The notes: a model not told the origin generated them from the letters alone. DNA of 64,000 nucleotides from Minisyncoccia bacterium (GCA_038228545.1 JBBRPE010000003.1:442-64441); one strand, 5' to 3'; shown: positions 3,011-51,675, counted from the first letter of the stretch. Numbers and translations are program-made.

Positions 3011-4108
3011 TTAAGAGTGTAGAAAGACCATCACGTCACCATCTTTGGTTTCGTAGGTTTTGCCTTCCGTGCGTATATCGCCCTTATCACGTGCAGCGCT
3101 CCACGAACCGTCTGCTATAAGCGTGTCCCACTGAACGACTTCTGCGCGTATAAATTTATCTTTGAAATCCTCGTGGATTGCAGCGCCCGCTTCAGGCGCA
3201 CTTGCGCCTTTTTTCACTGTCCATGCGCGTGTTTCTTTCGGACCAGTAGTGAAGTACGTAATAAGGCCGAGTGTTTCGTAAGCTCCACGTATCAAGTCCT
3301 TGATGCCATCATCTTGCACGCCGAGTTCCGAGCGGAACATAATTTTGTCCTCGTCTGAAACGTCGTTCAGCTCGTGTTCCGTTCGAGCGTCTACCATGAC
3401 GTAACTTCCACCGAGTGATTTCACATATTCGTACGCTTTCTCTGCTCGTCCGTCATTCATTTCGCCGAGATTATGCCCGCCTGCCTTGCCGTTAAAAGCG
3501 TAGAGGATTGGTTTCAAAGTAAGGAGATTGAGTGACTTGATAAGCTTTGCTTCTTCCGGCGTGAGGTCTGCCGTTAGCGCGAGCTTTCCATTCTCTAACT
3601 GACCTTCAACCTTTACGAGGACTGCATCTTCTTCTATCGCCTCTTTCTTATTCATCTTTACGTCCTTGCCGACTTTCTCACGACGATTTTTTACGGATGC
3701 CTGGTCTGCAAGCATAAGTTCAAGATTAATAACCTCAATATCCTCAACGGGATTCACTTCCCCATGTACATGCGTAATGTCTGGATCATCGAAGAAACGC
3801 ACCATTTGCAAAATTGCATCCGTCTCGCGGATATGAGTAAGGAACTGATTGCCCAGTCCTTCACCTTCTGAAGCACCCTTGACCAGTCCTGCAATATCCA
3901 CAAACTCTACAGCCGCAGGAATAGTTTTTTCAGAACCTGAAAGTGTGGTGAGTGCCTGTAGGCGTTCGTCCGGTACGCCAACGACACCCACGGATGGGTC
4001 TATCGTACAGAACGGATAATTCTCCGCTGGCACCGAAGCCTTTGTGAGCGCATTAAAGAGAGTGGACTTCCCGACATTCGGGAGCCCGACGATTCCTATC
4101 TGAAGCAT
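3011..4108 (-). CDS. ychF: Ribosome-binding ATPase YchF (Obg-family GTPase)
   Basis: [22 protein letters not shown] (G1/Walker A), FCTIDP, and a C-terminal TGS-like region ...GDVMVFLHS. 365 aa is typical for YchF. Confidence 0.95.
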
Positions 4109-4309: not shown

Positions 4310-4891
4310 TTACACTCCACGTCGAGCAAGTGCGGCAATTTTCTTGAGATACCGCGTATGACGAGTAGGAGTGCAGTTCTCGGAATTTCCGAATTGCGTC
4401 ATGGACACCTTGTAGCCCGACATACCGAGGAGGGCGTAGGAAATTTCGTTGGTGAAGTCACCGAAAACCAGCCGGATAAAAAATGGAGGCATCTTTGAAA
4501 GTGTAATAACGCGTGCAGTTTTGCCATTCAGCATGCGGTCCCAACCCATACCGCTTTTCCAAAAGTGGAAGGCGAAGCCGGGAAGCCACATACGGTCGAA
4601 CATACCCTTAAGGAGCGCGGGCATCGCCGACCACCACACCGGATACACGAGCACAAAGTGGTCAGCCCACTTCATATCTTCCTGGACCTTCTTCAAATCC
4701 GGTTCAAGTTCCTGAATGACCTTATAACCCTTGTGGAGAATAGGGTCGAAGGACAGGTCGCTTATGTTGGTACGACGCACGTAGTGCCCAGCTGCTGCGG
4801 CATCCTTTGCATACGCATCCGCCACATCATTCGAGAGCGTTTCCTCTGAGTCAGGGTTACCCATCAGTATAAAAATGTTCTTTTGCTTCAT
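4310..4891 (-). CDS. Flavodoxin-like fold NAD(P)H:quinone oxidoreductase (MdaB/YwrO-like)
   Basis: MKQKNIFILMGNPDSEETLS...HFVLVYPVWWSAMPALLKGMFDR, an FMN-dependent NAD(P)H dehydrogenase (Flavodoxin_2) signature. Confidence 0.8.
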   Translation of the reverse strand: MKQKNIFILMGNPDSEETLSNDVADAYAKDAAAAGHYVRRTNISDLSFDPILHKGYKVIQELEPDLKKVQEDMKWADHFVLVYPVWWSAMPALLKGMFDRMWLPGFAFHFWKSGMGWDRMLNGKTARVITLSKMPPFFIRLVFGDFTNEISYALLGMSGYKVSMTQFGNSENCTPTRHTRYLKKIAALARRGV

Positions 4892-5027
4892 ATCACGAAT
4901 TATGTCACGCGTTCAAAAGGATTCCTATGCAAGGCGTGGGTAAGTTATTGAATGAAGCGTACTCATAGTACGGAGAATGAAATGACTGGGACCCGCAACG
5001 CAGCAGAGGTATGCCTTTTGTCGCTCA

Positions 5028-5257
5028 TCACATTAGACCCTGTAGCTCATTCCTGTATTTTTTCATCACTTCCATGGTGGCCTTCATCTGCTGTTCTCCA
5101 CCTTTCTTCACGCGACGGTCTACCTCTTCACCAATCTTTTTAAAAAGTTCAGGGTTCTTAGTGACCAACGTTAAAATCTGCTCGCGCTGTGCCTCCGGCA
5201 CATCCTTGAGCTTGCTCTTCATCATCTGGCGAAGGAAAAAATCTTGTACTCCCATAG
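5028..5257 (-). CDS. Small lysine-rich hypothetical protein
   Basis: ORF 5028..5348 is trimmed to the internal Met (MGVQDFFLRQMMKSKLKD...ELQGLM) so it no longer overlaps the upstream ORF. No recognisable family. Confidence 0.4.
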
Positions 5258-5308
5258 TAGTGTCAGTATACCAAAAGTGTTCGGGCCCGCTATACCAGCG
5301 GGCCCTCA

Positions 5309-5683
5309 CTACTTTCTTTCGCTTTCGCGACGAAAGCGTTCCAGACATGTCTGCAAATGACGCAGGGTCTGTGTCCGAATTTCTTCCGGTGTGTCCGTCT
5401 CATAGACGACGAGCATGACCGCCGGAGTGTTTGGACGCTTTTGCCAGTGCAATTCGGCACAGTTTCGCGAAGAGGTAATCTGCAGGGGAATTCTGCCGTA
5501 TTCCGTATAGGCCCAGCCGTCGACGCCATTTTGGTCTTCTTCATGAGTTCCAGGAAGGACCATATAGACGTCGTCAGGTAGTTCAATCGGATAACAGTAG
5601 AATGCCTCGAAGAACTGTCGTTCGCGTGCCATACCGTAGGCATGTTGTTGTGCCCCAGATCGAGGCGTAGCTAGGTAGCTCAT
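5309..5683 (-). CDS. Hypothetical protein
   Basis: 124-aa ORF with an AGGAGA Shine-Dalgarno 6 nt upstream of the ATG at 5683. No recognised motif. Confidence 0.5.
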   Translation of the reverse strand: MSYLATPRSGAQQHAYGMARERQFFEAFYCYPIELPDDVYMVLPGTHEEDQNGVDGWAYTEYGRIPLQITSSRNCAELHWQKRPNTPAVMLVVYETDTPEEIRTQTLRHLQTCLERFRRESERK

Positions 5684-5765
5684 CGCTTCTCTCCTTGTAG
5701 CTCGCGTTTCGCTAAGAACACACTACCGTGTACACGCTGTTGTGCAAGTTGTCGAAGTGGGGACA

Positions 5766-6011
5766 CTACAGTAGGACCGTTGCCTGATTACTTGAAACTT
5801 CAGCGATTCCCTTTTCTATGGGAAACGTCTGCTTAGTGCCGTCCGCTGTTTCCACAGTGGCGACTCCTGCTCTAAGCGGAGTTACAAACGCTTCGTGTCC
5901 CGCCATCACCGTAAACATACCTTCCTCTCCGGGAAGATTTACTGAGACTGCGTCGCCATCGAAGAGATTATCTCCAACGCGAGCGATGGTGAGATGAAAT
6001 GTTTTTGCCAT
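5766..6011 (-). CDS. atpC: F1 ATP synthase epsilon subunit, short form (beta-sandwich domain only)
   Basis: MAKTFHLTIARVGDNLFDGDAVSVNLPGEEGMFTVMAGHEAFVTPL. It is the last gene of the atp operon. At 81 aa it lacks the C-terminal helical hairpin. Confidence 0.85.
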   Translation of the reverse strand: MAKTFHLTIARVGDNLFDGDAVSVNLPGEEGMFTVMAGHEAFVTPLRAGVATVETADGTKQTFPIEKGIAEVSSNQATVLL

Positions 6012-6129
6012 AGGTATTTGTTAGGCGACGGAAAATGGGTTTGGATGCTAGGCGTCGCGAGAGAATTTCCGGAGGCGTATGCAGTATACGGCGGAGGAAA
6101 TTCTAGAAGCGACAACAACGTAGACGAAT

Positions 6130-7960
<1,831 letters not shown>

Positions 7961-11326: not shown

Positions 11327-11611
<285 letters not shown>

Positions 11612-45330: not shown

Positions 45331-46437
45331 CTATTGGTACTGAATGAAGATGGGTGAAGGCTGGAGATCTAGTACTTCTCGTGGCGTCAGCATGCGGGTA
45401 GACGGAGGGAGGAGGTCGTTCTTATAGAAAAGTTTAAAGCCTGCGAATTGCACCGGTTCCATTTGAATAACGCGCTTGTACGTATTTATCTTTTTCGCAC
45501 CAAATCCCCAGCCGTCCATGTCCATGATTACTTGCACGTTTGCAGTAGGGGCAATGCTTCGTGAGCCCGTCACCATAGCCTCCGTAAACCGATGCACGAC
45601 AAGTATCTTCGGCGGGAGATTGTTATCAGTCGCAATCTTGTCGAGAAAATTAATCGCAAAGTTTATATCGCTTGAACTCATCGTACCTATGACACGCCCC
45701 GGCTTTACGCCGTTGTGCATCGAGAATTCTGGATCTAGTGCCAAGTGCACGTTCGGAAGTTTCAAAAAAGGCTCGAGGCGCGGAAGCTCGCTCGGTAAGT
45801 CTGACAGTCCTACCTGGACGTCTAATATTACTATCCCGTGAACTTGGCTCGCCAAATCAACAGCCTTTTGTATTTCGGTTGCAGGCATACGCAGGCGGTA
45901 CGTGTTATCGGGCTGTGGGCTTCCCTGAGCAGTGTCGACAATGTAATCGATTGCAGGAATGACCGGTGTAGAGGGGTCTGCGTCCTGCCACTGCTTCACC
46001 GTGGCTTGCAACTGCGGAATCATGACTGAAGGTGGGTTCTGGCCGAGTATACCCATTTTCGTCGAGTAGAAGTTGCCGTAATAGGCAACGATGCGATTGA
46101 ACGGCAGTAGTGCACCTGCCTTTGGATACACAGTCTTAGCGGGCCACGTGTGGGGTTTCGTTGTTGATGCGGTCGAGGTTCCGACTGGTGCAGGATAATT
46201 CGCAAGTTTCTGCATGCGTCGGTCGTAGTCAGCAACGTTAAGCGTTACCGGCGTTGTTGTTGCCTTAGGCGTGAAAAGTCCTTTCACCGTAGAAGTGCCT
46301 TGCGCTTCTACACGGTCATAACGACCAGCGAATAGTTCGGGAAGCGCGACGAAATAAATAAGGACGGCAATGAGTACCCCGCCAAGAGCTACATAGGCAT
46401 AGGGAAGCTTTTTTACGCTTACGGGAGACACGGTCAT
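45331..46437 (-). CDS. Hypothetical membrane-anchored extracytoplasmic protein
   Basis: 368 aa with an N-terminal TM (LPYAYVALGGVLIAVLIYFVAL). No motif assigned. Confidence 0.55.
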   Translation of the reverse strand: MTVSPVSVKKLPYAYVALGGVLIAVLIYFVALPELFAGRYDRVEAQGTSTVKGLFTPKATTTPVTLNVADYDRRMQKLANYPAPVGTSTASTTKPHTWPAKTVYPKAGALLPFNRIVAYYGNFYSTKMGILGQNPPSVMIPQLQATVKQWQDADPSTPVIPAIDYIVDTAQGSPQPDNTYRLRMPATEIQKAVDLASQVHGIVILDVQVGLSDLPSELPRLEPFLKLPNVHLALDPEFSMHNGVKPGRVIGTMSSSDINFAINFLDKIATDNNLPPKILVVHRFTEAMVTGSRSIAPTANVQVIMDMDGWGFGAKKINTYKRVIQMEPVQFAGFKLFYKNDLLPPSTRMLTPREVLDLQPSPIFIQYQ

Positions 46438-46484
46438 GATAGTGCCATACTACGCTATTTGAGCGAGTAACAAAAATACCGGTA

Positions 46485-46838
46485 TCAGTGCTTCAGTACG
46501 AGAAGGTGCAAATGAAAATGTGGCGGAATAGTACGTGTACGGTGCGTTGATTCAATAAAGTTATCGTACTTCCCCTGTAGTTCGTCAGAATACTTTATCT
46601 GCATAAACTCCTCTCGCTCTTCGTCTGTGAGCTCGCTTTCCGTGGCATGACGCAGAGGCAGCAACATGTTGTGTTCTGCCGCTATGAGGTCATACGGAAA
46701 CAGATTTGAAACGATTTTCCAGTGCACAAAGGTTTTCAGCGATTCACGGTTACAAAGCGCACAAGCGGTTTTGAATTCGTTAGTCTGCATGACCTCTCGG
46801 TAACGCTGACTCAATTCAGTGGAGCGGAAAACAGGCAT
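46485..46838 (-). CDS. HIT-family (histidine triad) protein
   Basis: C-terminal HFHLHLL (H-phi-H-phi-H-phi-phi) and an N-terminal CALC zinc-ribbon-like pair, 117 aa. Confidence 0.55.
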   Translation of the reverse strand: MPVFRSTELSQRYREVMQTNEFKTACALCNRESLKTFVHWKIVSNLFPYDLIAAEHNMLLPLRHATESELTDEEREEFMQIKYSDELQGKYDNFIESTHRTRTIPPHFHLHLLVLKH

Positions 46839-46861
46839 AGCAAAGGTGATATGGGTAAAGT

Positions 46862-47338
46862 CTACAGTTTTTTTGATAATCTGAAGTACGTAAGGGTGAA
46901 TGGATATCCTGGGATAAGACGCACCTGTAACTTGCCAAGATATTCTCCAGGTGCGACTTCGACGATTTCGTCGAGTACTGGACGGAGCCAGAGCGGGTTC
47001 GTTAGACTATTGTACTCAATTTGAACGACGAGGCGATTATCGTGTACACCAGGACCGATAGAAAGTGTAAACGGATACTTTTCAATGAATGTTCCGGATG
47101 CAGTCGAAAATAGATTAATCCCGGAGTGAGTTGCTGCATTGAATTTCTTGCCAAGCCAGGAAACTTTTGGACCGGTTACCGTGCCTGCATATGTACCATT
47201 TGGCAAAGTGTCTGTTTCAAGTGCATGGGTGAAGCTTGTTTGATCCTGCGTCCACAGCAATTGATTCGTTCGTACTAGTAGTAGTACTAGTACAGTGACG
47301 AGCACCAGGGCAATGATTTTGAGGGCTAGCAGTAGCAT
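46862..47338 (-). CDS. Hypothetical membrane-anchored protein
   Basis: N-terminal TM (LLLALKIIALVLVTVLVLLLV), 158 aa. Confidence 0.5.
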   Translation of the reverse strand: MLLLALKIIALVLVTVLVLLLVRTNQLLWTQDQTSFTHALETDTLPNGTYAGTVTGPKVSWLGKKFNAATHSGINLFSTASGTFIEKYPFTLSIGPGVHDNRLVVQIEYNSLTNPLWLRPVLDEIVEVAPGEYLGKLQVRLIPGYPFTLTYFRLSKKL

Positions 47339-47388
47339 GCAGGTAGCGTAGCACGTAGCATTTGACTGGAACCGAGTAAGAAACAGCC

Positions 47389-47428
47389 GGCAGGGAACCC
47401 CGCCGGCTGTTTCTTTTCTAGTTTCGCC
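47389..47428. terminator. Bidirectional terminator hairpin
   Basis: cagccggc-agggaacccc-gccggctg followed by TTTCTTTTC. It is downstream of the minus-strand gene ending at 47441. Confidence 0.6.
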
Positions 47429-47440
47429 CGTAACGTATAC

Positions 47441-47779
47441 CTACAGGGGCTTCACCTCCATAACGTCGATGGTTGCACCCGGAATATCCAGATGTGGGTG
47501 ATTTTTGAACATCTCCGCCACTTCTTCGACTGAATTTCCCGCAACATAGGAAGAGAGCATAAGTCCGTTGTTAGTATCCGTAACTCCATCCGCTCGTACG
47601 CGTTTGGTGGCACCCAGACCGATAGTATTCTGTACCGAATCCTTATGGCTAGCGAGCCAGGTATCCCAATCTCCTTTCATCTTGGCTTCTGCTACCTTTC
47701 GTTCTTCTTCAGGCTTCGCCATCCATTCTTTCAGACCTTCGACAGGCATTGCGTATAGTACGGTGAAAAATTTCATATA
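47441..47779 (-). CDS. Hypothetical protein
   Basis: Internal Met start (MKFFTVLYAMPVEGLKEW...) of ORF 47441..47872, 112 aa. Confidence 0.45.
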   Translation of the reverse strand, partial: YMKFFTVLYAMPVEGLKEWMAKPEEERKVAEAKMKGDWDTWLASHKDSVQNTIGLGATKRVRADGVTDTNNGLMLSSYVAGNSVEEVAEMFKNHPHLDIPGATIDVMEVKPL

Positions 47780-47835
47780 AGTATGTCTAGATATAATGCT
47801 GATATGGTACTGCATCCCACATGAGGTTGTGGTGA

Positions 47836-48225
47836 TTACGGGTGTCGTTTGCCGGCCAGGAGCATCACACACGCTTTTTCCACTCTTTTTGCGCGCGTTT
47901 CCGTGTCACTAGCAGCTCCAATCCAATCAGCAAAATCCCTATGTTGGTCCGGTGTGAGCTTCTTCCAATGCGCTTTTGCCTTTGGGAGCTCACCTATGGC
48001 TTTGTACAGATTCATGGGAACAATCGCATAACAGCACGGGCGTTTCTTTCCGCTTGCAAGCCTCGATGGAATGCTATCGAGGCGCCGCTTCCGGGTCTCC
48101 GGTTGCTTAGCCGACTCTATCCAACTCACAAAATCACGATGTGCGATTGACGTTAGCGCATTCCACTGCGCCTTTGCTTTTGCAGTGGTGAGTGATTTGC
48201 GAATCTCCGTTAGAGTTTTTTCCAT
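47836..48225 (-). CDS. YdeI/OmpD-associated-family-like protein with internal tandem duplication
   Basis: Two copies of KAKAxWxxLTxxxxRDFxxWIxxAxxxETRxxR...LAxGKxxP (residues ~15-62 and ~82-129). Confidence 0.5.
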   Translation of the reverse strand: MEKTLTEIRKSLTTAKAKAQWNALTSIAHRDFVSWIESAKQPETRKRRLDSIPSRLASGKKRPCCYAIVPMNLYKAIGELPKAKAHWKKLTPDQHRDFADWIGAASDTETRAKRVEKACVMLLAGKRHP

Positions 48226-48236
48226 AGGATTAGGTA

Positions 48237-49241
48237 TTAATTAATTTCAATATCTACATACGTCACCTGCGGAAACTCCTCTCGTATACTTTTTTCAATC
48301 TCAGCAATACGGTTACCGACAAGACGCGGAATACGGTCGGTGGTACGGAACATGAGCTTCGTGAATTCTTTGAAATCGTCCTTGATATTATCGAATTCGT
48401 CCTGGAGGTCGCCCGCCTCGTATATCTCCTCGTAGAGCGGAGAACCATTCCATTCAACGGCGGCGAAGATTCGATACTTATTCAAATCAACAGCTGCAGA
48501 CTTGAATTCAATAACCTTTTCAACACATGAATCTTTTTCAAGAGCCTCAATAAGCTCGTCCACAATATCTTCATGCAAGGGCATGCCGATAATATATTTG
48601 TGATTCTTTATGATGAGTAGAATTGCCAGGAACCCAAGTATGAGACCCACGGCTATACCACCCAGTGAGTCGTACACTGCATTTCCGGTTATGTAGGTAA
48701 GCCACTGGGCAATAAGAGCAAACAGAACACCAAGCACGGCGACACTGTCTTCATAGACGACAGCAAGAAGTACCGGGTCGCCATCGGAAAAAAGTTCGAC
48801 GGTGAGATTTCCTCCATTTCGCAATTCGTTCACCGCAAGAAACAACGTCATACCCTCTATGAGGAGCGCTACCAAAAGTACGAGAACGCTCAGTGTGCTG
48901 AATACCGGCGCTTGGTGGCTTACCTGGAGCAAGGATTCGATAGAGTGGTAGAGAGAAATACCCGCGCCAATGAATAACACACCGCACGCGGACACGAGCG
49001 ACCAAAAGAAGCGCTCAATACCATAACCGTAGCCATGAATGTCGTCGGCGGGTCGCTTAGAGCGCTGAATTCCTATGAGGAGGAGCGACTGATTGAGTGT
49101 GTCTGCAATACTATGGACGCTTTCCGCAAACATACTCGCCGAGCCGGTAGCGATTGCCACGACGGTTTTTATGATGGTTATAAATACATTGCCACTAAGA
49201 GCGGCAATGACCGATACTTTTCCTTGGGCGTGTTTGCTCAC
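48237..49241 (-). CDS. Cation diffusion facilitator family metal efflux transporter
   Basis: 6 TM helices with SVHSIADTLNQ and HGYGYGIERF motifs, plus a C-terminal cytoplasmic domain. 334 aa. Confidence 0.9.
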   Translation of the reverse strand: MSKHAQGKVSVIAALSGNVFITIIKTVVAIATGSASMFAESVHSIADTLNQSLLLIGIQRSKRPADDIHGYGYGIERFFWSLVSACGVLFIGAGISLYHSIESLLQVSHQAPVFSTLSVLVLLVALLIEGMTLFLAVNELRNGGNLTVELFSDGDPVLLAVVYEDSVAVLGVLFALIAQWLTYITGNAVYDSLGGIAVGLILGFLAILLIIKNHKYIIGMPLHEDIVDELIEALEKDSCVEKVIEFKSAAVDLNKYRIFAAVEWNGSPLYEEIYEAGDLQDEFDNIKDDFKEFTKLMFRTTDRIPRLVGNRIAEIEKSIREEFPQVTYVDIEIN

Positions 49242-49301
49242 GTACGAAGAGTGTATCAGAAATACGTTGATGTCTGAGACGTGATGAAATGGAGACGGGC
49301 G

Positions 49302-49835
49302 CTAATCAACAACATCGTACCCGAGCTTTCGCGCAACATCCTCTTCCTCAAGAACTTCTCCGGTAAGCGGGTCGTGGCACATATATTCTTTATCCATTGC
49401 AAAATAGGTCGGTGTCTTGCTGTGTTCACCACCTGCGGCCTTCCAGCATGTACTGAGCCATGCATAGAGCATCTCGGACTGTCGAGTACCGAAATCCATT
49501 GCTTCCTTATCTGTGAACTCAACACCGTCAAATGTTTTGGTCTCGTATTCGTCTAGTTCGGAAATAAAGCTTGTTTCGGAACTACTTTCCACATCGTAGT
49601 CAGCGCCCAACTTTTTCTTTCCATCCTCGTCTGTAACTTTGAAGCTATTGTAAACGAGACAGAAATTTTGATCCGCGAATAACTCAAGTGTGCGATATAT
49701 TTCACCTTCTTTCGGCTCCATCTCCACATACGTGCGCATTTTCTCTACGGCCGCTCCCTCAGCACGTTCCAATATCCCAGTAACTTCACCGATAATCTTG
49801 TCCACGCGTTCAATTCCGTTTGGTATAGCTTCCAT
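49302..49835 (-). CDS. Hypothetical acidic protein
   Basis: 177 aa, soluble and acidic. It lies just outside the last att-like repeat of the tRNA-Gln array. Confidence 0.5.
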   Translation of the reverse strand: MEAIPNGIERVDKIIGEVTGILERAEGAAVEKMRTYVEMEPKEGEIYRTLELFADQNFCLVYNSFKVTDEDGKKKLGADYDVESSSETSFISELDEYETKTFDGVEFTDKEAMDFGTRQSEMLYAWLSTCWKAAGGEHSKTPTYFAMDKEYMCHDPLTGEVLEEEDVARKLGYDVVD

Positions 49836-49886
49836 ATGTATAGATTATGCCATGAAATGGATATGCGTCAGAATCTAGATACATCT

Positions 49887-49915
49887 GGCAGACTGGGACG
49901 ATGTTGGAACCTATG
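49887..49915 (-). repeat. att-like repeat 3: degenerate copy of the tRNA-Gln 3' end
   Basis: Minus-strand sequence TAGGTTCCAACATCGTCCCAGTCTGCCAG compared with tRNA-Gln CTAGGTTCGATCCCTAGTCTCCCAGCA. It shares TAGGTTC and CCC(T)AGTCT(C)CCAG. Located directly after the stop of ORF 49911..50534. Confidence 0.6.
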
Positions 49916-50534
49916 CTACTCCCATGTATCCATCCTTGAGTTCAGATTGAAATTTCTCTTCTTCAAAAGTTTGAGGATCGATACTCCAACTTGATGCAAC
50001 TTTTAATACATCTGACTCATTGGGGAAATCCTCCCAATTCTCCATTGGGGTGGAAAGATAAACAAGGTCTTTTTCAATAGAAGTTGGTTCGCCAACGTTT
50101 CGATAGACCTCACCGCTTTCACCTAAGTAATAAAAACTTCTTTTAAGTTCCCCATTTATTGCACGCGCCCATATGTTCAGTTCAACAACCCGATGATTCG
50201 CAAAGAATTGAGCCTCCCCAAATTCCTTACTTAACACGCATATCTTATCTTCAATATCGGTAAGATCTTCTCTTAAAGAGAGAGCGAGCGCCTGGCCCAC
50301 CACAAATACCCAACCTTCTACTTGAGGAGTAATAAAGATTTCTTTTCCAGCTCCGTTAGCGTATGTAGCTGAAACACCTTCACGCCAGGGTGTCTCTCGA
50401 AGCTTTCGTATACCCAGAATAGCGTCAATTTTTTCATAGTCCGCTGGTGCCTTAATGGCATACCATGCAGTTTTATATGACCAAGCAGCGAACAACGAAT
50501 CAGGTTGAGTAGGTTTCTTAGCAAAGAATTTCAT
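49911..50534 (-). CDS. Hypothetical protein (cassette gene C, AT-rich)
   Basis: 207 aa, AT-rich codon usage unlike the flanking genes, immunity-protein-like small soluble protein. No family assigned. Confidence 0.55.
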   Translation of the reverse strand: MKFFAKKPTQPDSLFAAWSYKTAWYAIKAPADYEKIDAILGIRKLRETPWREGVSATYANGAGKEIFITPQVEGWVFVVGQALALSLREDLTDIEDKICVLSKEFGEAQFFANHRVVELNIWARAINGELKRSFYYLGESGEVYRNVGEPTSIEKDLVYLSTPMENWEDFPNESDVLKVASSWSIDPQTFEEEKFQSELKDGYMGVA

Positions 50535-50560
50535 ATATTTGAATGTATGACATACAGATT

Positions 50561-50590
50561 TTAGTGCTGGCAGTCTGGAACTACGTTGTA
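50561..50590 (-). repeat. att-like repeat 2: degenerate copy of the tRNA-Gln 3' end
   Basis: Minus-strand AGGTTACAACGTAGTTCCAGACTGCCAGCA ends in CCAGCA like the tRNA-Gln 3' terminus (…UCCCAGCA). Located directly after the stop of ORF 50596..51072. Confidence 0.6.
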
Positions 50591-50595
50591 ACCTT

Positions 50596-51072
50596 CTAAT
50601 TAATCAACAGCGAGGTGTAAGTCTCCCACTTTGGGTCACACTTCATCATAAACTGTAGTTGATGCTCTTCAAATTTATCTTGAATGGTTTTGACTTTCGA
50701 CTCAAAATATTCCGGCTTCCACTCTGGCGCGTAGAAAACAAATTCTCTCATACCACCAGTAGTGATAGACATAACATAGAGGAGTCCGTCTTTTGAAAGA
50801 ATCGCGTCAAGCTCATCTTCAATCAAGTTTAGTTCTTGTAACTCACTGCCTTGGGGTAAACCAGCTTCAGTAGGATTTTTGAGCGGAATTACAACACCAA
50901 TCTGAAATGGAAATCTTTCAGAGCCAACCATATTTGAAACTTGTCGTGCGCGTATGAATATTGCTTTGCCTGCGTATTCACCTCGTAACACCTTCCATTC
51001 ATCAGGCATTGGAGTTGGGTTTGAATCATTCTTCTTTGAGAAGTTGAGCATAATGTCTAAATTATCATACAC
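50596..51072 (-). CDS. Hypothetical acidic protein (cassette gene B, AT-rich)
   Basis: 158 aa. Faint resemblance to small acidic immunity/regulator-type proteins, unverified. Confidence 0.55.
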   Translation of the reverse strand: MYDNLDIMLNFSKKNDSNPTPMPDEWKVLRGEYAGKAIFIRARQVSNMVGSERFPFQIGVVIPLKNPTEAGLPQGSELQELNLIEDELDAILSKDGLLYVMSITTGGMREFVFYAPEWKPEYFESKVKTIQDKFEEHQLQFMMKCDPKWETYTSLLIN

Positions 51073-51084
51073 AAATCGAGCTGA

Positions 51085-51112
51085 CTGTTTGGGTCGATGT
51101 TGGAACTTTTTT
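51085..51112 (-). repeat. att-like repeat 1: degenerate copy of the tRNA-Gln 3' end
   Basis: Minus-strand GTTCCAACATCGACCCAAACAGTCAGC, the same motif family as repeats 2 and 3. Located directly after the stop of ORF 51115..51357. Confidence 0.5.
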
Positions 51113-51114
51113 AC

Positions 51115-51357
51115 TTACCACCATGATGTAAAAATTGCACTCAAAAAATTCTCAGCCACAAGCTTCCTGAAGCGAGAACTAACTACCAATCCGAATACGC
51201 CTATTACGACAATGACTCCAGAGACCATAACAATTGGCTGCGCCCCTAGATTTCTATAGAACAAATATGAAAAGGCACTCAGCACAAAAGCTGCAATGGA
51301 GATCAAGAACACAATTACAGGGATCGCTAACAGAATCTCTGAAATGAAGTTTTTCAT
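51115..51357 (-). CDS. Small 2-TM membrane protein (cassette gene A)
   Basis: 80 aa with two hydrophobic helices. It starts 19 nt after the truncated tRNA-Gln copy. Confidence 0.45.
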   Translation of the reverse strand: MKNFISEILLAIPVIVFLISIAAFVLSAFSYLFYRNLGAQPIVMVSGVIVVIGVFGLVVSSRFRKLVAENFLSAIFTSWW

Positions 51358-51375
51358 GTTTTTAGTATATATCAG

Positions 51376-51430
51376 TTGAGAGACTAGGGATCGAACCTAT
51401 ATTCACGGCTTCAAAGACCGCTGTCCTACT
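51376..51430 (-). pseudogene. 5'-truncated duplicate of tRNA-Gln (D-arm to 3' end, no acceptor 5' strand)
   Basis: Minus strand GUAGGACAGCGGUCUUUGAAGCCGUGAAUAUAGGUUCGAUCCCUAGUCUCUCAA is ~90% identical to positions 18-73 of the intact tRNA-Gln. The upstream sequence cannot pair with the 3' strand, so it is not a functional tRNA. Confidence 0.65.
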
Positions 51431-51470
51431 GGCAAGCGACTGAGCGAAGAATGGAATCTGTTCTGTTCAG

Positions 51471-51543
51471 TGCTGGGAGACTAGGGATCGAACCTAGATT
51501 CACGGCTTCAAAGGCCGCTGTCCTACCATTAGACGATCTCCCA
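51471..51543 (-). tRNA. tRNA-Gln (anticodon UUG)
   Basis: Minus strand UGGGAGAUCGUCUAAUGGUAGGACAGCGGCCUUUGAAGCCGUGAAUCUAGGUUCGAUCCCUAGUCUCCCAG(CA). Full cloverleaf with the U1:A72 and G73 Gln identity elements and anticodon loop CUUUGAA. Confidence 0.9.
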
Positions 51544-51675
51544 GCACTGGACGGAACAGGAACGGATTGCATTCTTCCGAGGGAGCGCTGCCAGCAAGCT
51601 CTGCTTACCACTCGCCGATCTCCCAATTTGTGAACCGCACGTTCTCACTTTGCCCGAAGTGGCTCTCCTCGGCAA

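Follow-up and report, generated by a model that had tools for sequence, protein, structure and literature searches.

Downstream of a tRNA-Gln gene in a Minisyncoccia bacterium, an ultra-small member of the Patescibacteria, three short direct repeats delimit units of one gene each. The repeats probably serve as att sites for a family of integrative elements with the tRNA-Gln 3' end as their target, in Paceibacteria-type Patescibacteria, and the region they divide is probably a cassette array that arose by repeated site-specific insertion beside the tRNA. The stretch of DNA analysed, hereafter the window, comprises 64,000 nt (GCA_038228545.1, JBBRPE010000003.1:442-64441).

The tRNA-Gln locus and the window array

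The features of the locus are given below in the reading direction of the minus strand.

51606-51625, minus strand: 20-nt partial tRNA-Gln copy, upstream of the functional gene, corresponding to the 5' end (positions 1-20; 85% identity)
51446-51577, minus strand: complementary leader and trailer, predicted to form a long stem enclosing the functional tRNA-Gln (inverted repeats I1 and I6; predicted fold)
51472-51543, minus strand: intact tRNA-Gln(UUG), the anchor of the array (ARAGORN; Rfam RF00005 tRNA, 63.8 bits)
51377-51429, minus strand: 5'-truncated 53-nt tRNA-Gln copy, equivalent to tRNA positions 18-70 (repeat search, 94% identity)
51115-51357, minus strand: cassette 1, an 80-aa ORF with predicted membrane helices (ORF list; gene call in Logan contig L234)
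51071-51117, minus strand: motif copy 1, degenerate; core 51081-51108, AGTTCCAACATCGACCCAAACAGTCAG (nhmmer, 33.8 bits)
50596-51051, minus strand: cassette 2, a 151-aa DUF695 protein (Pfam PF05117, E=7.6e-23; gene call in L234)
50557-50600, minus strand: motif copy 2; core 50567-50594, AGGTTACAACGTAGTTCCAGACTGCCAG (nhmmer, 31.9 bits)
49911-50534, minus strand: cassette 3, a 207-aa ORF (ORF207), function unknown, weakly matching DUF6928 (Pfam)
49877-49914, minus strand: motif copy 3, the best copy; core 49885-49912, AGGTTCCAACATCGTCCCAGTCTGCCAG (nhmmer, 34.5 bits)
49302-49835, minus strand: ORF177, an acidic 177-aa ORF after the last motif, inside the variable region (ORF list, Pfam)
46438-49301, minus strand: remainder of the variable region, bordering the first conserved flank gene (Pfam; gene calls in L234)

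A first-pass annotation, made from the sequence alone, had placed an intact tRNA-Gln(UUG) and a 5'-truncated copy of it on the minus strand, and both were recovered; by blastn the truncated copy matched the tRNA-Gln with 96% identity over 50 nt (E=2e-19). The displaced 53-nt fragment lies only 42 nt from the intact gene, and the inverted repeats around the latter are 91% (I1, 23 nt) and 89% (I6, 18 nt) complementary. In the predicted fold the 5'-end copy at 51606-51625 pairs with the truncated 3' fragment (z=-4.2), and these two pieces are the 5' and 3' parts of one disrupted outer tRNA-Gln that brackets the functional gene. An orthologous truncated copy and an alignable 5'-end copy are present in the related locus L003, from a species whose dnaX is 79% identical to that of the window species. 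The truncated tRNA, which had been counted as part of the cassette island, is instead a separate and older structure that has been kept in that species.

At 28 nt each, the three motif cores form direct repeats with 79-82% identity to the reference copy. A pattern search allowing 3 mismatches gave no further copies in the 64 kb (0 expected by chance), and a profile made from related copies matched these three sites only in a 6.7-kb search (E 1e-10 to 5e-10). Copy 1, proximal to the tRNA, is the most degenerate of the three. The repeats had been described as lying right after stop codons, which holds for the 80-aa, 151-aa and 207-aa ORFs, and the TAG stop of ORF207 overlaps the start of motif copy 3. 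No motif was detectable by profile search after ORF177, an ORF that is absent from the related loci; a stretch visible by eye at that place, CGTCTCAGAC, was considered as a fourth repeat and dismissed, as the profile search gave it no support. A DNA uptake sequence was also considered and rejected, the motif being restricted to one locus with 3 copies in 64 kb.

Database searches gave little information on the cargo of the window. No Pfam, NCBIfam or PADLOC family exceeded the threshold for the cassette 1 ORF, none of the window's cassette proteins matched anything in NCBIfam or PADLOC, and the Pfam search of the window proteins gave no polymorphic-toxin immunity families. The suggestion that the cargo consists of small immunity or membrane proteins thus came down to one small membrane ORF and one DUF695 match. 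Counts of promoter-like sites and terminators in the region were no higher than in shuffled sequences. The remaining variable region encodes a cation-efflux protein, an OmdA/YdeI-like protein and ORFs of 111 aa, 158 aa and ~117 aa, with no motif by profile search, and the flank gene that follows (45331-46437) has a counterpart in L003, 72% identical, located 2.7 kb downstream of tRNA-Gln.

The GC content is 0.38-0.44 over about 49600-51400 versus about 0.50 in the flanks, in agreement with the AT-rich ORFs reported from the sequence. In related genomes the dnaX-peptidase-tRNA-Gln synteny is kept, and none of the window's cassette ORFs are found there; the integration reading withstands this comparison with related genomes. 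The region is horizontally acquired cargo and not core genome, and the array of the window consists of three recognisable cassettes without a recombinase.

ORF207 illustrates the modular nature of the units. Its homologues P0122 (80%) and P0124 (57%) are each directly followed by the motif, with different neighbours, and the same gene-plus-site module is thus seen in three arrays, that of the window included. At the nucleotide level the homology of ORF207 to L245 (79%) stops at the end of the motif, right after CTGCCAG. Distant homologues of ORF207 occur in Bacteroidota.

A conserved site anchored to tRNA-Gln

The window repeats are copies of a conserved motif of ~33 nt, AAAGGTTCCAACATCGTCCCAGACnGCCAGCAA. 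Of 61 genomes of related species, 13 contain it, about a fifth of the clade species sampled, and a motif profile gave 35 copies in these 13 loci and the window, all of them downstream of tRNA-Gln and on the same strand. A metagenome scan, with a search pattern built to leave out a 20-mer of phage sequence, gave at least 289 copies on at least 120 contigs, with arrays of up to 10 copies among the contigs listed; the largest array that we found has 14 copies (L236). Mixed motif orientation was seen on none of the at least 120 contigs listed, and in the 41 contigs that contain both tRNA-Gln and motif all 93 motif copies are downstream of the tRNA-Gln and co-oriented with it. Motif arrays occur in many groundwater, soil and lake metagenomes; array-bearing samples include SRR19962015, with the very locus of the window, and the Hainich groundwater sets. 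The phage 20-mer, GTTCCAACATCGTCCCAGAC, had at one stage suggested a link to viral contigs, which was discarded as a coincidence given that its 33 matches all represent one conserved high-GC phage coding sequence.

Conservation drops sharply after GCCAGCaA, and only the left half of the site is conserved, the right side being merely A/T-rich. The motif is common to many species whose tRNA-Gln acceptor stems differ, and its right part is not matched to the host's own acceptor sequence. The repeats had been interpreted as older att scars of the host tRNA end; what is found instead is one conserved site across species, whose quality does not fall significantly the further a copy lies from the tRNA (Spearman -0.18, p=0.17).

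The spacing between motifs has a median of 506 nt, and the units, mostly 300-700 nt, are built around one gene. Their content is highly diverse, with 159 cassette ORFs falling into 154 clusters, and represents small accessory enzymes (NUDIX, GNAT, HAD, glyoxalase, isochorismatase, GH25), with no mobility genes among the cassette cargo. In 79 high-confidence cassettes, 57 genes were co-oriented with the motif and 22 were reversed, the latter including clear NUDIX, HAD and GH25 genes; in co-oriented cassettes the stop codon is a median of 2 nt from the motif core. Since the polarity of the motif is fixed, and that of the gene can be either, the role of the site is likely to be at the level of DNA.

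The short distance from stop codon to motif, together with the resemblance of the motif to a tRNA T-arm and acceptor strand, is also compatible with a function in RNA or in regulation, be it as a tRNA-like 3'-end processing or stability signal, as a terminator, or as the operator of a small-gene regulon. We regard such a function as very improbable. The polarity of the motif follows the tRNA and not the gene, with 22 of the 79 cassettes reversed, the functions of the cargo are unrelated to one another, Rfam gave no family in the repeat region except the tRNA itself, and the motif is found at one locus per genome stretch. Secondary structure is also missing: on both strands the motif is less structured than shuffled sequences (mean z +0.44 and +0.59) and has no hairpin potential.

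Similarity of the repeats to the 3' end of tRNA-Gln, as proposed in the first-pass annotation, was assessed with 2000 shuffles for each comparison. The proposal stands for two of the repeats, 2 (p=0.002) and 3 (p=0.001), as well as for the family consensus (p=0.003), and fails for the degenerate repeat 1, which on its own is not above chance (p=0.83). No similarity was seen between the repeats and the 3' ends of the window's tRNA-Ala and tRNA-Leu (2000 shuffles each). Two blocks are common to the motif and the tRNA-Gln end, the outer one AGGTTC and the inner one TCC.AG..CCAGCA, between which the motif is 5 bases longer, placing the outer block 5 bp further out in the cassette site than in the tRNA-Gln end in the one alignment made. 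Rutherford et al. 2013 (PMC3783163) showed for large serine recombinases (LSRs) that the outer zinc-ribbon motif of an attB site is 5 bp nearer the centre than that of an attP site, and our single alignment is suggestive of this attP-versus-attB half-site offset. The original idea of site-specific recombination sites that are related to the tRNA 3' end, and that delimit single-gene units in a tRNA-anchored island whose recombinase is encoded elsewhere, has gained strong comparative support.

Serine recombinases and proposed insertion at the tRNA end

No recombinase was found in the 64-kb window, confirming the absence of an integrase noted earlier, and most arrays likewise have none on their contig. 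A scan for tyrosine-recombinase catalytic boxes was negative for the 64-kb window, for 80 related loci and for 119 of 120 metagenome contigs. L205, the exception, has an Xer-like tyrosine recombinase gene with its end 46 nt away from a motif, and there is no tRNA-Gln close by.

Array-linked LSR genes were found by all-against-all protein clustering, and their products comprise Resolvase, Recombinase and Zn_ribbon_recom domains. In several contigs an LSR element of 3.5-7 kb exactly fills the space from the tRNA-Gln 3' end to the first motif. The LSR adjoins the tRNA-Gln 3' end, with a motif at the far end of the element, in L165 and L209 from the motif-selected contigs; the element in L169, a contig on which no tRNA-Gln was found, also ends at a motif, and partial LSR genes are present in L206, L158, L193 and L228. 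LSR genes are near only about 6% of the motif-selected contigs. A second sample was made up of LSR homologues gathered independently of the motif, and here motif arrays stood beside the LSR in L235 (about 7-9 copies), L236 (14), L237 (about 8) and L241 (2), and were lacking in L240 and L242. The 3' end of the LSR gene abuts or overlaps the tRNA-Gln 3' end in L165, L209, L235, L237 and L241, and in L238 it abuts tRNA-Lys. The element also carries a rolling-circle-type Rep protein and an HTH regulator. No relatives of the LSR were found in viral contigs, and none of three small LSR contigs was circular.

In the tRNA-Lys relative the far-end site is AAAGTTCCAACATCGTCCCA followed by tRNA-Lys acceptor sequence. 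The left arm is therefore a property of the element type, and the right part goes with the target tRNA. L001, L020, L026 and L072 also contain att-like duplications of the tRNA-Gln end, with left arms of other kinds, a sign that several integrases use tRNA-Gln.

These duplications, the Xer-like gene 46 nt from a motif in L205, and a cassette size, cargo and array form like those of chromosomal integrons and recombinase-less attC clusters could also be explained by an integron-like or Xer system with its tyrosine recombinase elsewhere in the genome, the LSR elements being mere tenants of a tRNA-Gln hot spot. This is quite improbable, since the motif is conserved in sequence and forms neither hairpin nor palindrome (z +0.4, +0.6), the opposite of attC, since it has no inverted arms, unlike dif-type sites with their two inverted arms, and since the catalytic-box scan was negative for the loci and contigs given above. 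An LSR, on the other hand, would account for the 5-base offset and for LSR elements being placed exactly between tRNA end and motif. The motif was also considered as a dif/Xer site in its own right and rejected, with no inverted arms, an uninformative GC skew in the window and an Xer-like gene near the motif only in L205. What remains of the integron-like array put forward in the first-pass annotation is the single-ORF units and the co-oriented sites; with no hairpin, no tyrosine integrase found and an LSR as the associated enzyme, the array is not a classical integron.

In the mechanism that we propose for repeated insertion at tRNA-Gln, each unit would consist of one gene, often with its own promoter, and the conserved ~33-bp site at its tRNA-distal end. 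The motif AAAGGTTCCAACATCGTCCCAGACnGCCAGCAA would represent an attP-type half-site, and the T-arm and acceptor 3' strand of tRNA-Gln, GGTTCGATCCCTAGTCTCCCAGCA, its attB-type counterpart. An LSR is the most likely enzyme, encoded by the 3.5-7 kb element with the rolling-circle-type Rep and the HTH regulator; this element, when present, takes the tRNA-proximal slot of the array, and small cassettes devoid of a recombinase would be moved in trans. New units would enter at the tRNA and displace older ones outward, and the tRNA-Gln would be left intact because the point of exchange would lie at or beyond its last bases. Conservation, polarity and tRNA-Gln anchoring of the sites, the boundaries of the units, the variety of their cargo and the position of the LSR are observations; action of the LSR on the sites, the place of crossover and individual movement of single-gene cassettes are inferred.

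Canonical LSRs recombine attP with attB only, and each site has two imperfectly symmetric half-sites around a central dinucleotide. The cassette sites deviate from this two-half-site rule, in that one half-site is conserved. Repeated insertion moreover requires that the tRNA-side product site stays usable as a target, which is atypical of studied LSRs, and we know of no studied serine integrase that tolerates a one-sided site and reuses its own product site.

A different origin of the arrays would be that the att sites are real, albeit the units are leftover distal ends (the last cargo gene and the far-end att site) of full-size recombinase-bearing elements that integrated at tRNA-Gln and have been mostly deleted, and were never singly mobile; an array would then be a graveyard and not a platform for capture. 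Full-size LSR elements do end in a gene-plus-motif junction, exemplified by a 154-aa ORF in L165 that ends at the motif, and serial integration with remnants is documented at tRNA islands (tycheposon preprint, 10.1101/2020.12.28.424599). In line with such an origin, free or polymorphic cassettes were not seen: no strain-level presence/absence polymorphism, empty site or circular cassette was observed, and cassettes shared at the nucleotide level were only found between contigs identical throughout. Leftover ends are nevertheless an unlikely explanation, considering that the unit sizes are narrow around one gene, that no fragments of LSR, Rep or HTH genes were found in 67 scanned cassettes, and that there is no significant decay of the site with rank. 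In addition, a homologous cassette, that of ORF207, recurs in three arrays as the same gene-plus-site module, and random deletions would not halt time after time just upstream of one intact gene.

Relation to known systems and implications

Staphylococcal and enterococcal cassette chromosomes (SCCmec/ECC, moved by CcrAB or CcrC) resemble the arrays in the use of an LSR, presumed here, in the insertion site, the 3' end of a housekeeping gene that is conserved and left intact, in direct-repeat att sites that bound the units, in a highly variable cargo, and in conservation mainly on the side of the target gene. Remnants and recombinase-less units also sit beside the target gene of SCCmec (PMC6222049). 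They differ in that SCCmec/ECC uses rlmH and the CcrA/CcrB pair, compared with a tRNA gene and a presumed single LSR here, and forms multi-gene islands of 20-60 kb, compared with single-gene units of ~0.5 kb in arrays of up to 14. The TATCATAA core of SCCmec/ECC is absent here and the site sequence is unrelated, so that target and site set the two apart; the hosts here are Patescibacteria, and the repeated site would be the attP-type version, distinct from a simple copy of the target end.

Integrons and CALINs share with the arrays the mostly single-gene cassettes with a terminal recombination site in one polarity, the huge and mostly singleton pool of small accessory enzymes, the frequent lack of a nearby recombinase, and the proposed insertion at one privileged end. 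In contrast to integrons, no IntI tyrosine recombinase is found here, the anchor is a tRNA gene instead of attI, and the site is conserved in sequence with no hairpin, whereas attC is a conserved hairpin structure of variable sequence. Many cassettes here also show signs of a promoter of their own, a quarter to a third are reversed, and if the enzyme is an LSR only the tRNA-proximal units should be excisable. Tentatively, and with somewhat more doubt than trust, the arrays may be pictured as a serine-recombinase counterpart of the integron, a chromosomal platform for gene capture in genome-reduced Patescibacteria, in which one-half-site cassettes inserted and removed in trans would dock at the tRNA-Gln 3' end, the LSR would reside on a small rolling-circle replicon, and the last unit in at the tRNA-proximal end would be the first out.

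Among elements at tRNA genes, the tycheposons of Prochlorococcus, a minority of which use large serine recombinases (10.1101/2020.12.28.424599), integrate serially at one tRNA, as proposed here, so that older elements are displaced outward by newer ones, and partial-tRNA att repeats are left scattered through the island. Their units, however, span several genes, integrase and replication genes of their own among them, and include degraded remnants, and their repeats are plain partial tRNAs, as opposed to the single genes here, bounded by a conserved non-tRNA version that is shared across species. The Islander-type definition of a tRNA island calls for an intact tRNA at one end and a displaced 3' fragment of it, as a direct repeat, at the other; the window has the intact tRNA and the 53-nt fragment only 42 nt from it, and its cassette-bounding sites are tRNA-like and not plain tRNA fragments. 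No integrase is found beside the tRNA in the window, and in L165, L209, L235, L237 and L241 an LSR is present at this position. The integrases of phiC31, Bxb1 and A118 (LI) have the same combination of Resolvase, Recombinase and zinc ribbon and half-sites that differ by a 5-bp outer shift (PMC3783163). Those enzymes, however, need two half-sites, do not reuse product sites and build no arrays, while here one half-site is conserved and the existence of arrays implies that the tRNA-side site has been used again and again.

In the literature other than subscription-only papers, no description was found of the motif, of cassette arrays or integrons in Patescibacteria, or of serine-recombinase integron-like systems, and the arrangement of arrays and sites looks like an undescribed gene-capture system. 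The motif offers a simple and specific marker for annotating such arrays in metagenomes. If our reading is correct, a serine recombinase together with a tRNA-derived site would have given rise to integron-like capture, and the unusual site rules of such an LSR (a single conserved half-site, reuse of the product site) would be of interest for genome-engineering enzymes. Patescibacteria have tiny genomes and, to our knowledge, few recognised routes of gene gain. The array locus would then be a defined place in which to seek niche-specific functions, and a dedicated, widespread locus that stockpiles single-gene cassettes would be a main source of accessory genes in Patescibacteria.

The tRNA-Gln locus and its nested fragments

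The locus carries its features on the minus strand, in the following order.

Features of the tRNA-Gln locus in the window
53678-52614, minus: dnaX
52614-51676, minus: M10-like peptidase gene
51543-51472, minus: tRNA-Gln(UUG), found with ARAGORN and Rfam
51429-51377, minus: 53-nt copy of tRNA-Gln positions 18-70 (repeat search, 94% identity)
next after the truncated copy, minus: 80-aa membrane ORF
after the 80-aa ORF, minus: 151-aa DUF695 protein (Pfam, E=7.6e-23)
49911-50534 (after the DUF695 protein), minus: 207-aa ORF (ORF207)
after ORF207, minus: 177-aa ORF (ORF177)
after ORF177, minus: cation-efflux gene

A repeat search also grouped three 28-nt direct repeats into one family (repeat 1, 51081-51108; repeat 2, 50567-50594; repeat 3, 49885-49912; repeat 1 lies closest to the tRNA), each immediately preceded by a stop codon. 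The motif they represent occurs only at this locus in the 64-kb window, and GC content is 0.38-0.44 over the cassettes versus about 0.50 outside. Since the tRNA, the truncated copy, the three repeats at stop codons and the GC dip were all recovered, the locus had been accurately described in the first-pass annotation. A 111-aa protein family (MKxFTVxY...EEWMxKPE...) is encoded within the variable region of the window (47441-47776, minus), and also shortly past the last array motif in five contigs (L029, 3725-4060, and four others; median 465 nt).

A copy of tRNA-Gln positions 1-20 lies upstream of the functional tRNA at 51625-51606, so that the minus strand of 51377-51625 reads positions 1-20 copy, 62 nt, functional tRNA, 42 nt, positions 18-70 copy. 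The leader and trailer of the tRNA are complementary (inverted repeats I1 and I6), and about 30 nt of each (51446-51480 and 51537-51577) prolong the acceptor stem into a long helix, likewise in the related locus L003; this helix could serve in processing, or its strands could be the two ends of the inserted segment. The whole 261 nt are predicted to fold into a tRNA cloverleaf on a long stem, with the outer fragments pairing to close it (z=-4.2). In L003 (9960-10266, dnaX 79% identical) the arrangement aligns base for base with the window, and the outer fragment retains an anticodon-stem state since changed in the functional tRNA of that locus. The truncated copy is a separate, older feature, orthologous in L003, rather than the latest scar left by the cassettes. 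The arrangement looks like an ancestral tRNA-Gln whose D-loop was broken by an insertion, the present tRNA having arrived with it; the fragments may overlap by 3 nt (GTA) at the break.

A conserved motif downstream of tRNA-Gln

For comparison, 80 related loci from species-representative genomes (Patescibacteria of Paceibacteria/Kaiserbacteria type) were retrieved via dnaX. The order dnaX-(peptidase)-tRNA-Gln is kept in 61 of the 80, and none of the related species loci carries the cassette genes of the window. Searching with a loose pattern and then an nhmmer profile, we found the motif in 13 of these loci, with 35 copies including the three of the window, all downstream of tRNA-Gln and on its strand, often in runs (five in L006, for example). 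Scanning metagenomes for a pattern built on the motif core gave at least 120 contigs, in which the profile detected at least 289 copies; among the matches listed, arrays reached 10 copies and no contig had the motif on both strands. In all contigs having both the motif and tRNA-Gln (UUG or CUG), 93 out of 93 copies were co-oriented with and downstream of the tRNA, at a median distance of 575 nt to the first copy. The logo reads AaAAAgGTTCCAACATCGTCCCAGAC.GCCAGCaA with one free position, and conservation stops abruptly at the right edge, with only A/T richness further out. The repeat is a conserved site and not a private scar. An exact match of the 20-mer GTTCCAACATCGTCCCAGAC in 33 viral contigs (L081-L113) was rejected as coincidental, being always within one conserved high-GC coding sequence; its reverse strand reads ...VWDDVGTFDG..., and it is a trap for pattern searches.

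The repeats had been said to resemble the T-arm and acceptor 3' strand of tRNA-Gln. This holds for the consensus (p=0.003), repeat 2 (p=0.002) and repeat 3 (p=0.001), which align better than shuffled sequences, but not for repeat 1 alone (p=0.83); neither the tRNA-Ala nor the tRNA-Leu of the window showed anything comparable. In the alignment of AGGTTC---GATC--CCTAGTCTCCCAGCA with AGGTTCCAACATCGTCCCAGACTGCCAGCA the outer and inner blocks are common, and in the motif they stand five bases further apart. Hosts with TCTCCCA, TCCCCCA or TCCCGCA acceptors all carry ...GAC[n][G/C]CCAGC. Since the motif does not follow the acceptor sequence of its own host, the copies are something other than mere displaced fragments of the tRNA present there, and the idea that they are scars of its 3' end was not borne out. 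Rutherford et al. 2013 (PMC3783163) showed for half-sites of large serine recombinases (LSRs) that the outer zinc-ribbon-domain motif is 5 bp closer to the centre in attB than it is in attP. The 5-bp offset between tRNA (B-type) and motif (P-type) would fit this rule, a resemblance in one alignment and no proof.

Cassettes and their cargo

The motif-to-motif spacing has a median of 506 nt and is mostly 300-700 nt. When 159 distinct cassettes are each represented by their longest ORF, 154 sequence clusters result. Where a cassette holds one unambiguous ORF, the gene runs in the direction of the motif in 57 of 79 cases and opposite in 22. In the 57 co-oriented cases the stop codon and the core are separated by a median of 2 nt, as in the window. 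Reversed cassettes include clear NUDIX, HAD and GH25 genes and, as read from the sequences, often have a TTGACA box beside the motif and a terminator hairpin at the opposite end; promoter-like sites in the window itself were not above chance. The Pfam matches are small accessory enzymes (NUDIX, 6/67; also GNAT, HAD, DUF218, glyoxalase/bleomycin-resistance, NTP_transf_6, SDR, isochorismatase, polysaccharide deacetylase and CYTH), with no mobility genes among them. On neither strand does the motif show any potential for secondary structure (mean z +0.44 and +0.59). Its polarity, which tracks the tRNA whatever the gene direction, its lack of structure and its restriction to a single locus argue for a role at the DNA level rather than as terminator, processing signal or operator.

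ORF207 recurs with its site, with close homologues in two further arrays. The homologue P0122 on contig L245 (80% identity) ends in a TAG that overlaps GGTTCC, just as the window gene does; the two sequences are 79% identical across gene and motif, similarity collapses right after CTGCCAG, and the DNA that follows differs. A second homologue (P0124 on L244, 57% identity) is flanked by two motif copies beside dnaE, and a third (49% identity) lies between ftsA and ftsZ with no motif, outside the arrays, on a Patescibacteria-like contig (L243, 1574-2371). More distant homologues are mostly from Bacteroidota (34-42% identity). As homology ends at the motif end and the neighbours differ, the gene-plus-site unit behaves, at the sequence level, as a module with its right boundary there.

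Large serine recombinases and the proposed origin of the arrays

Scanning for tyrosine-recombinase motifs gave no match in the window or the 80 related loci. On L205 (region 4789-6471) an Xer-like tyrosine recombinase gene adjoins rpsO, with two motif copies directly beside its 3' end; this contig has tRNA-Gly, -Pro and -Arg genes and no tRNA-Gln, and no other array that was seen apart from tRNA-Gln has a tyrosine recombinase close by.

Clustering of all ORFs of all loci revealed a 486-aa LSR with precomputed Resolvase, Recombinase and Zn_ribbon_recom domains. In L165 and L209 the 3' end of its gene abuts the 3' end of tRNA-Gln, and the element spans 4.8-6.9 kb to a motif copy, past which the array continues in L165. 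In L169 the element likewise ends at a motif, with tRNA-Gln not found on the contig, and partial LSR copies occur at contig ends in L206, L158, L193 and L228. Besides the LSR, the elements carry genes for a REP_ORF2-G2P-type replication protein and an HTH_3 regulator. No LSR was found in the window, and most arrays, including that of the window, have none on their contig.

As a motif-independent test, the genomic contexts of seven LSR homologues were inspected. P0012 (about 7-9 motif copies after it), P0017 (about 8) and P0019 (2) abut the tRNA-Gln 3' end, and P0005, with 14 copies after it, abuts a 24-nt tRNA-Gln 3' fragment. P0034 abuts tRNA-Lys, and P0020 and P0002 have no array. A different tRNA-Gln type (TGGGGAGTGGTGTAATTGG...) occupies the locus in L165 (1-130) and L016 (11976-12049); between this variant and the LSR gene, L165 has a 24-nt piece of the 3' end of the usual tRNA-Gln, which begins at GGTTC. 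Only such a 24-nt fragment, without a complete tRNA, is found beside the LSR in L236 (about 11449-11530) and L240 (about 3680-3710).

A sister LSR element (52% identity) targets tRNA-Lys(UUU) in L238 (7690-7730 and 11449-11522) and also in L239. The far end of the tRNA-Lys element is AAAGTTCCAACATCGTCCCA-TAGGGCGGACCA, in which the motif's constant left arm runs into the acceptor strand of tRNA-Lys; the left arm is therefore a property of the element family, and the right part matches the target tRNA. With the AAAGTTCCAACATCGTCCCA arm constant, a change of target seems to affect just the inner part of the site. More distant LSRs (30-36% identity to the array-linked LSR) lie 2-6 kb downstream of tRNA-Gln in L022, L024, L034 and L080, which suggests that additional LSR lineages, with different versions of the site, occur at this tRNA; these genomes are without the motif. 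Exact 14-19-nt duplicates of the extreme 3' end of tRNA-Gln, with left arms unrelated to the motif, occur about 100-190 nt downstream of the tRNA (L001, 7038-7052; L020, 7136-7153; L026, 11853-11871; L072, 11725-11738) and resemble att scars from another integrase with this tRNA as its target.

On the best-supported reading, this is a cassette array anchored at tRNA-Gln, and its sites are half-sites of attP type that belong to the LSR element family. The tRNA would be the entry point of new units and would be kept intact because exchange takes place at or beyond its last bases, and single-gene cassettes without a recombinase would be moved in trans. Candidate crossover positions are the single free base inside the motif and its right edge. 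Against this reading, only one half-site is conserved, and neither circular cassettes nor strain polymorphism were seen in the data compared. Studied LSRs are not known to reuse product sites or to recombine like sites, and the lack of an LSR on most array contigs also counts against the reading. As the main alternative, the small units could be what is left of full elements. However, unit sizes are narrowly distributed around one gene, LSR or Rep fragments are absent from the 67 cassettes scanned, sites do not decay significantly with rank (Spearman -0.18, p=0.17), and the ORF207 module recurs.

Neither the motif nor arrays of this kind in Patescibacteria were described in the literature covered, with subscription journals outside that coverage. 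By working principle, the closest systems are SCC/ECC, integrons with recombinase-less attC clusters, and serial-integration tRNA islands. SCC/ECC cassette chromosomes combine an LSR, a target at the 3' end of a conserved gene, direct-repeat boundaries and recombinase-less units (PMC6222049). The arrays resemble them in these features, the LSR being the probable enzyme here, whereas the SCC-defining target and core are not theirs. Integrons and recombinase-less attC clusters are likewise arrays of single-gene cassettes with the same kind of cargo, but neither IntI nor folded attC was found when looked for in the arrays. Growth by serial integration would be shared with tRNA islands such as tycheposon islands, although the array repeat is not a plain partial tRNA. 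We thus rate the array as a member of none of these classes, and as a probable case of site-specific cassette/island accretion.
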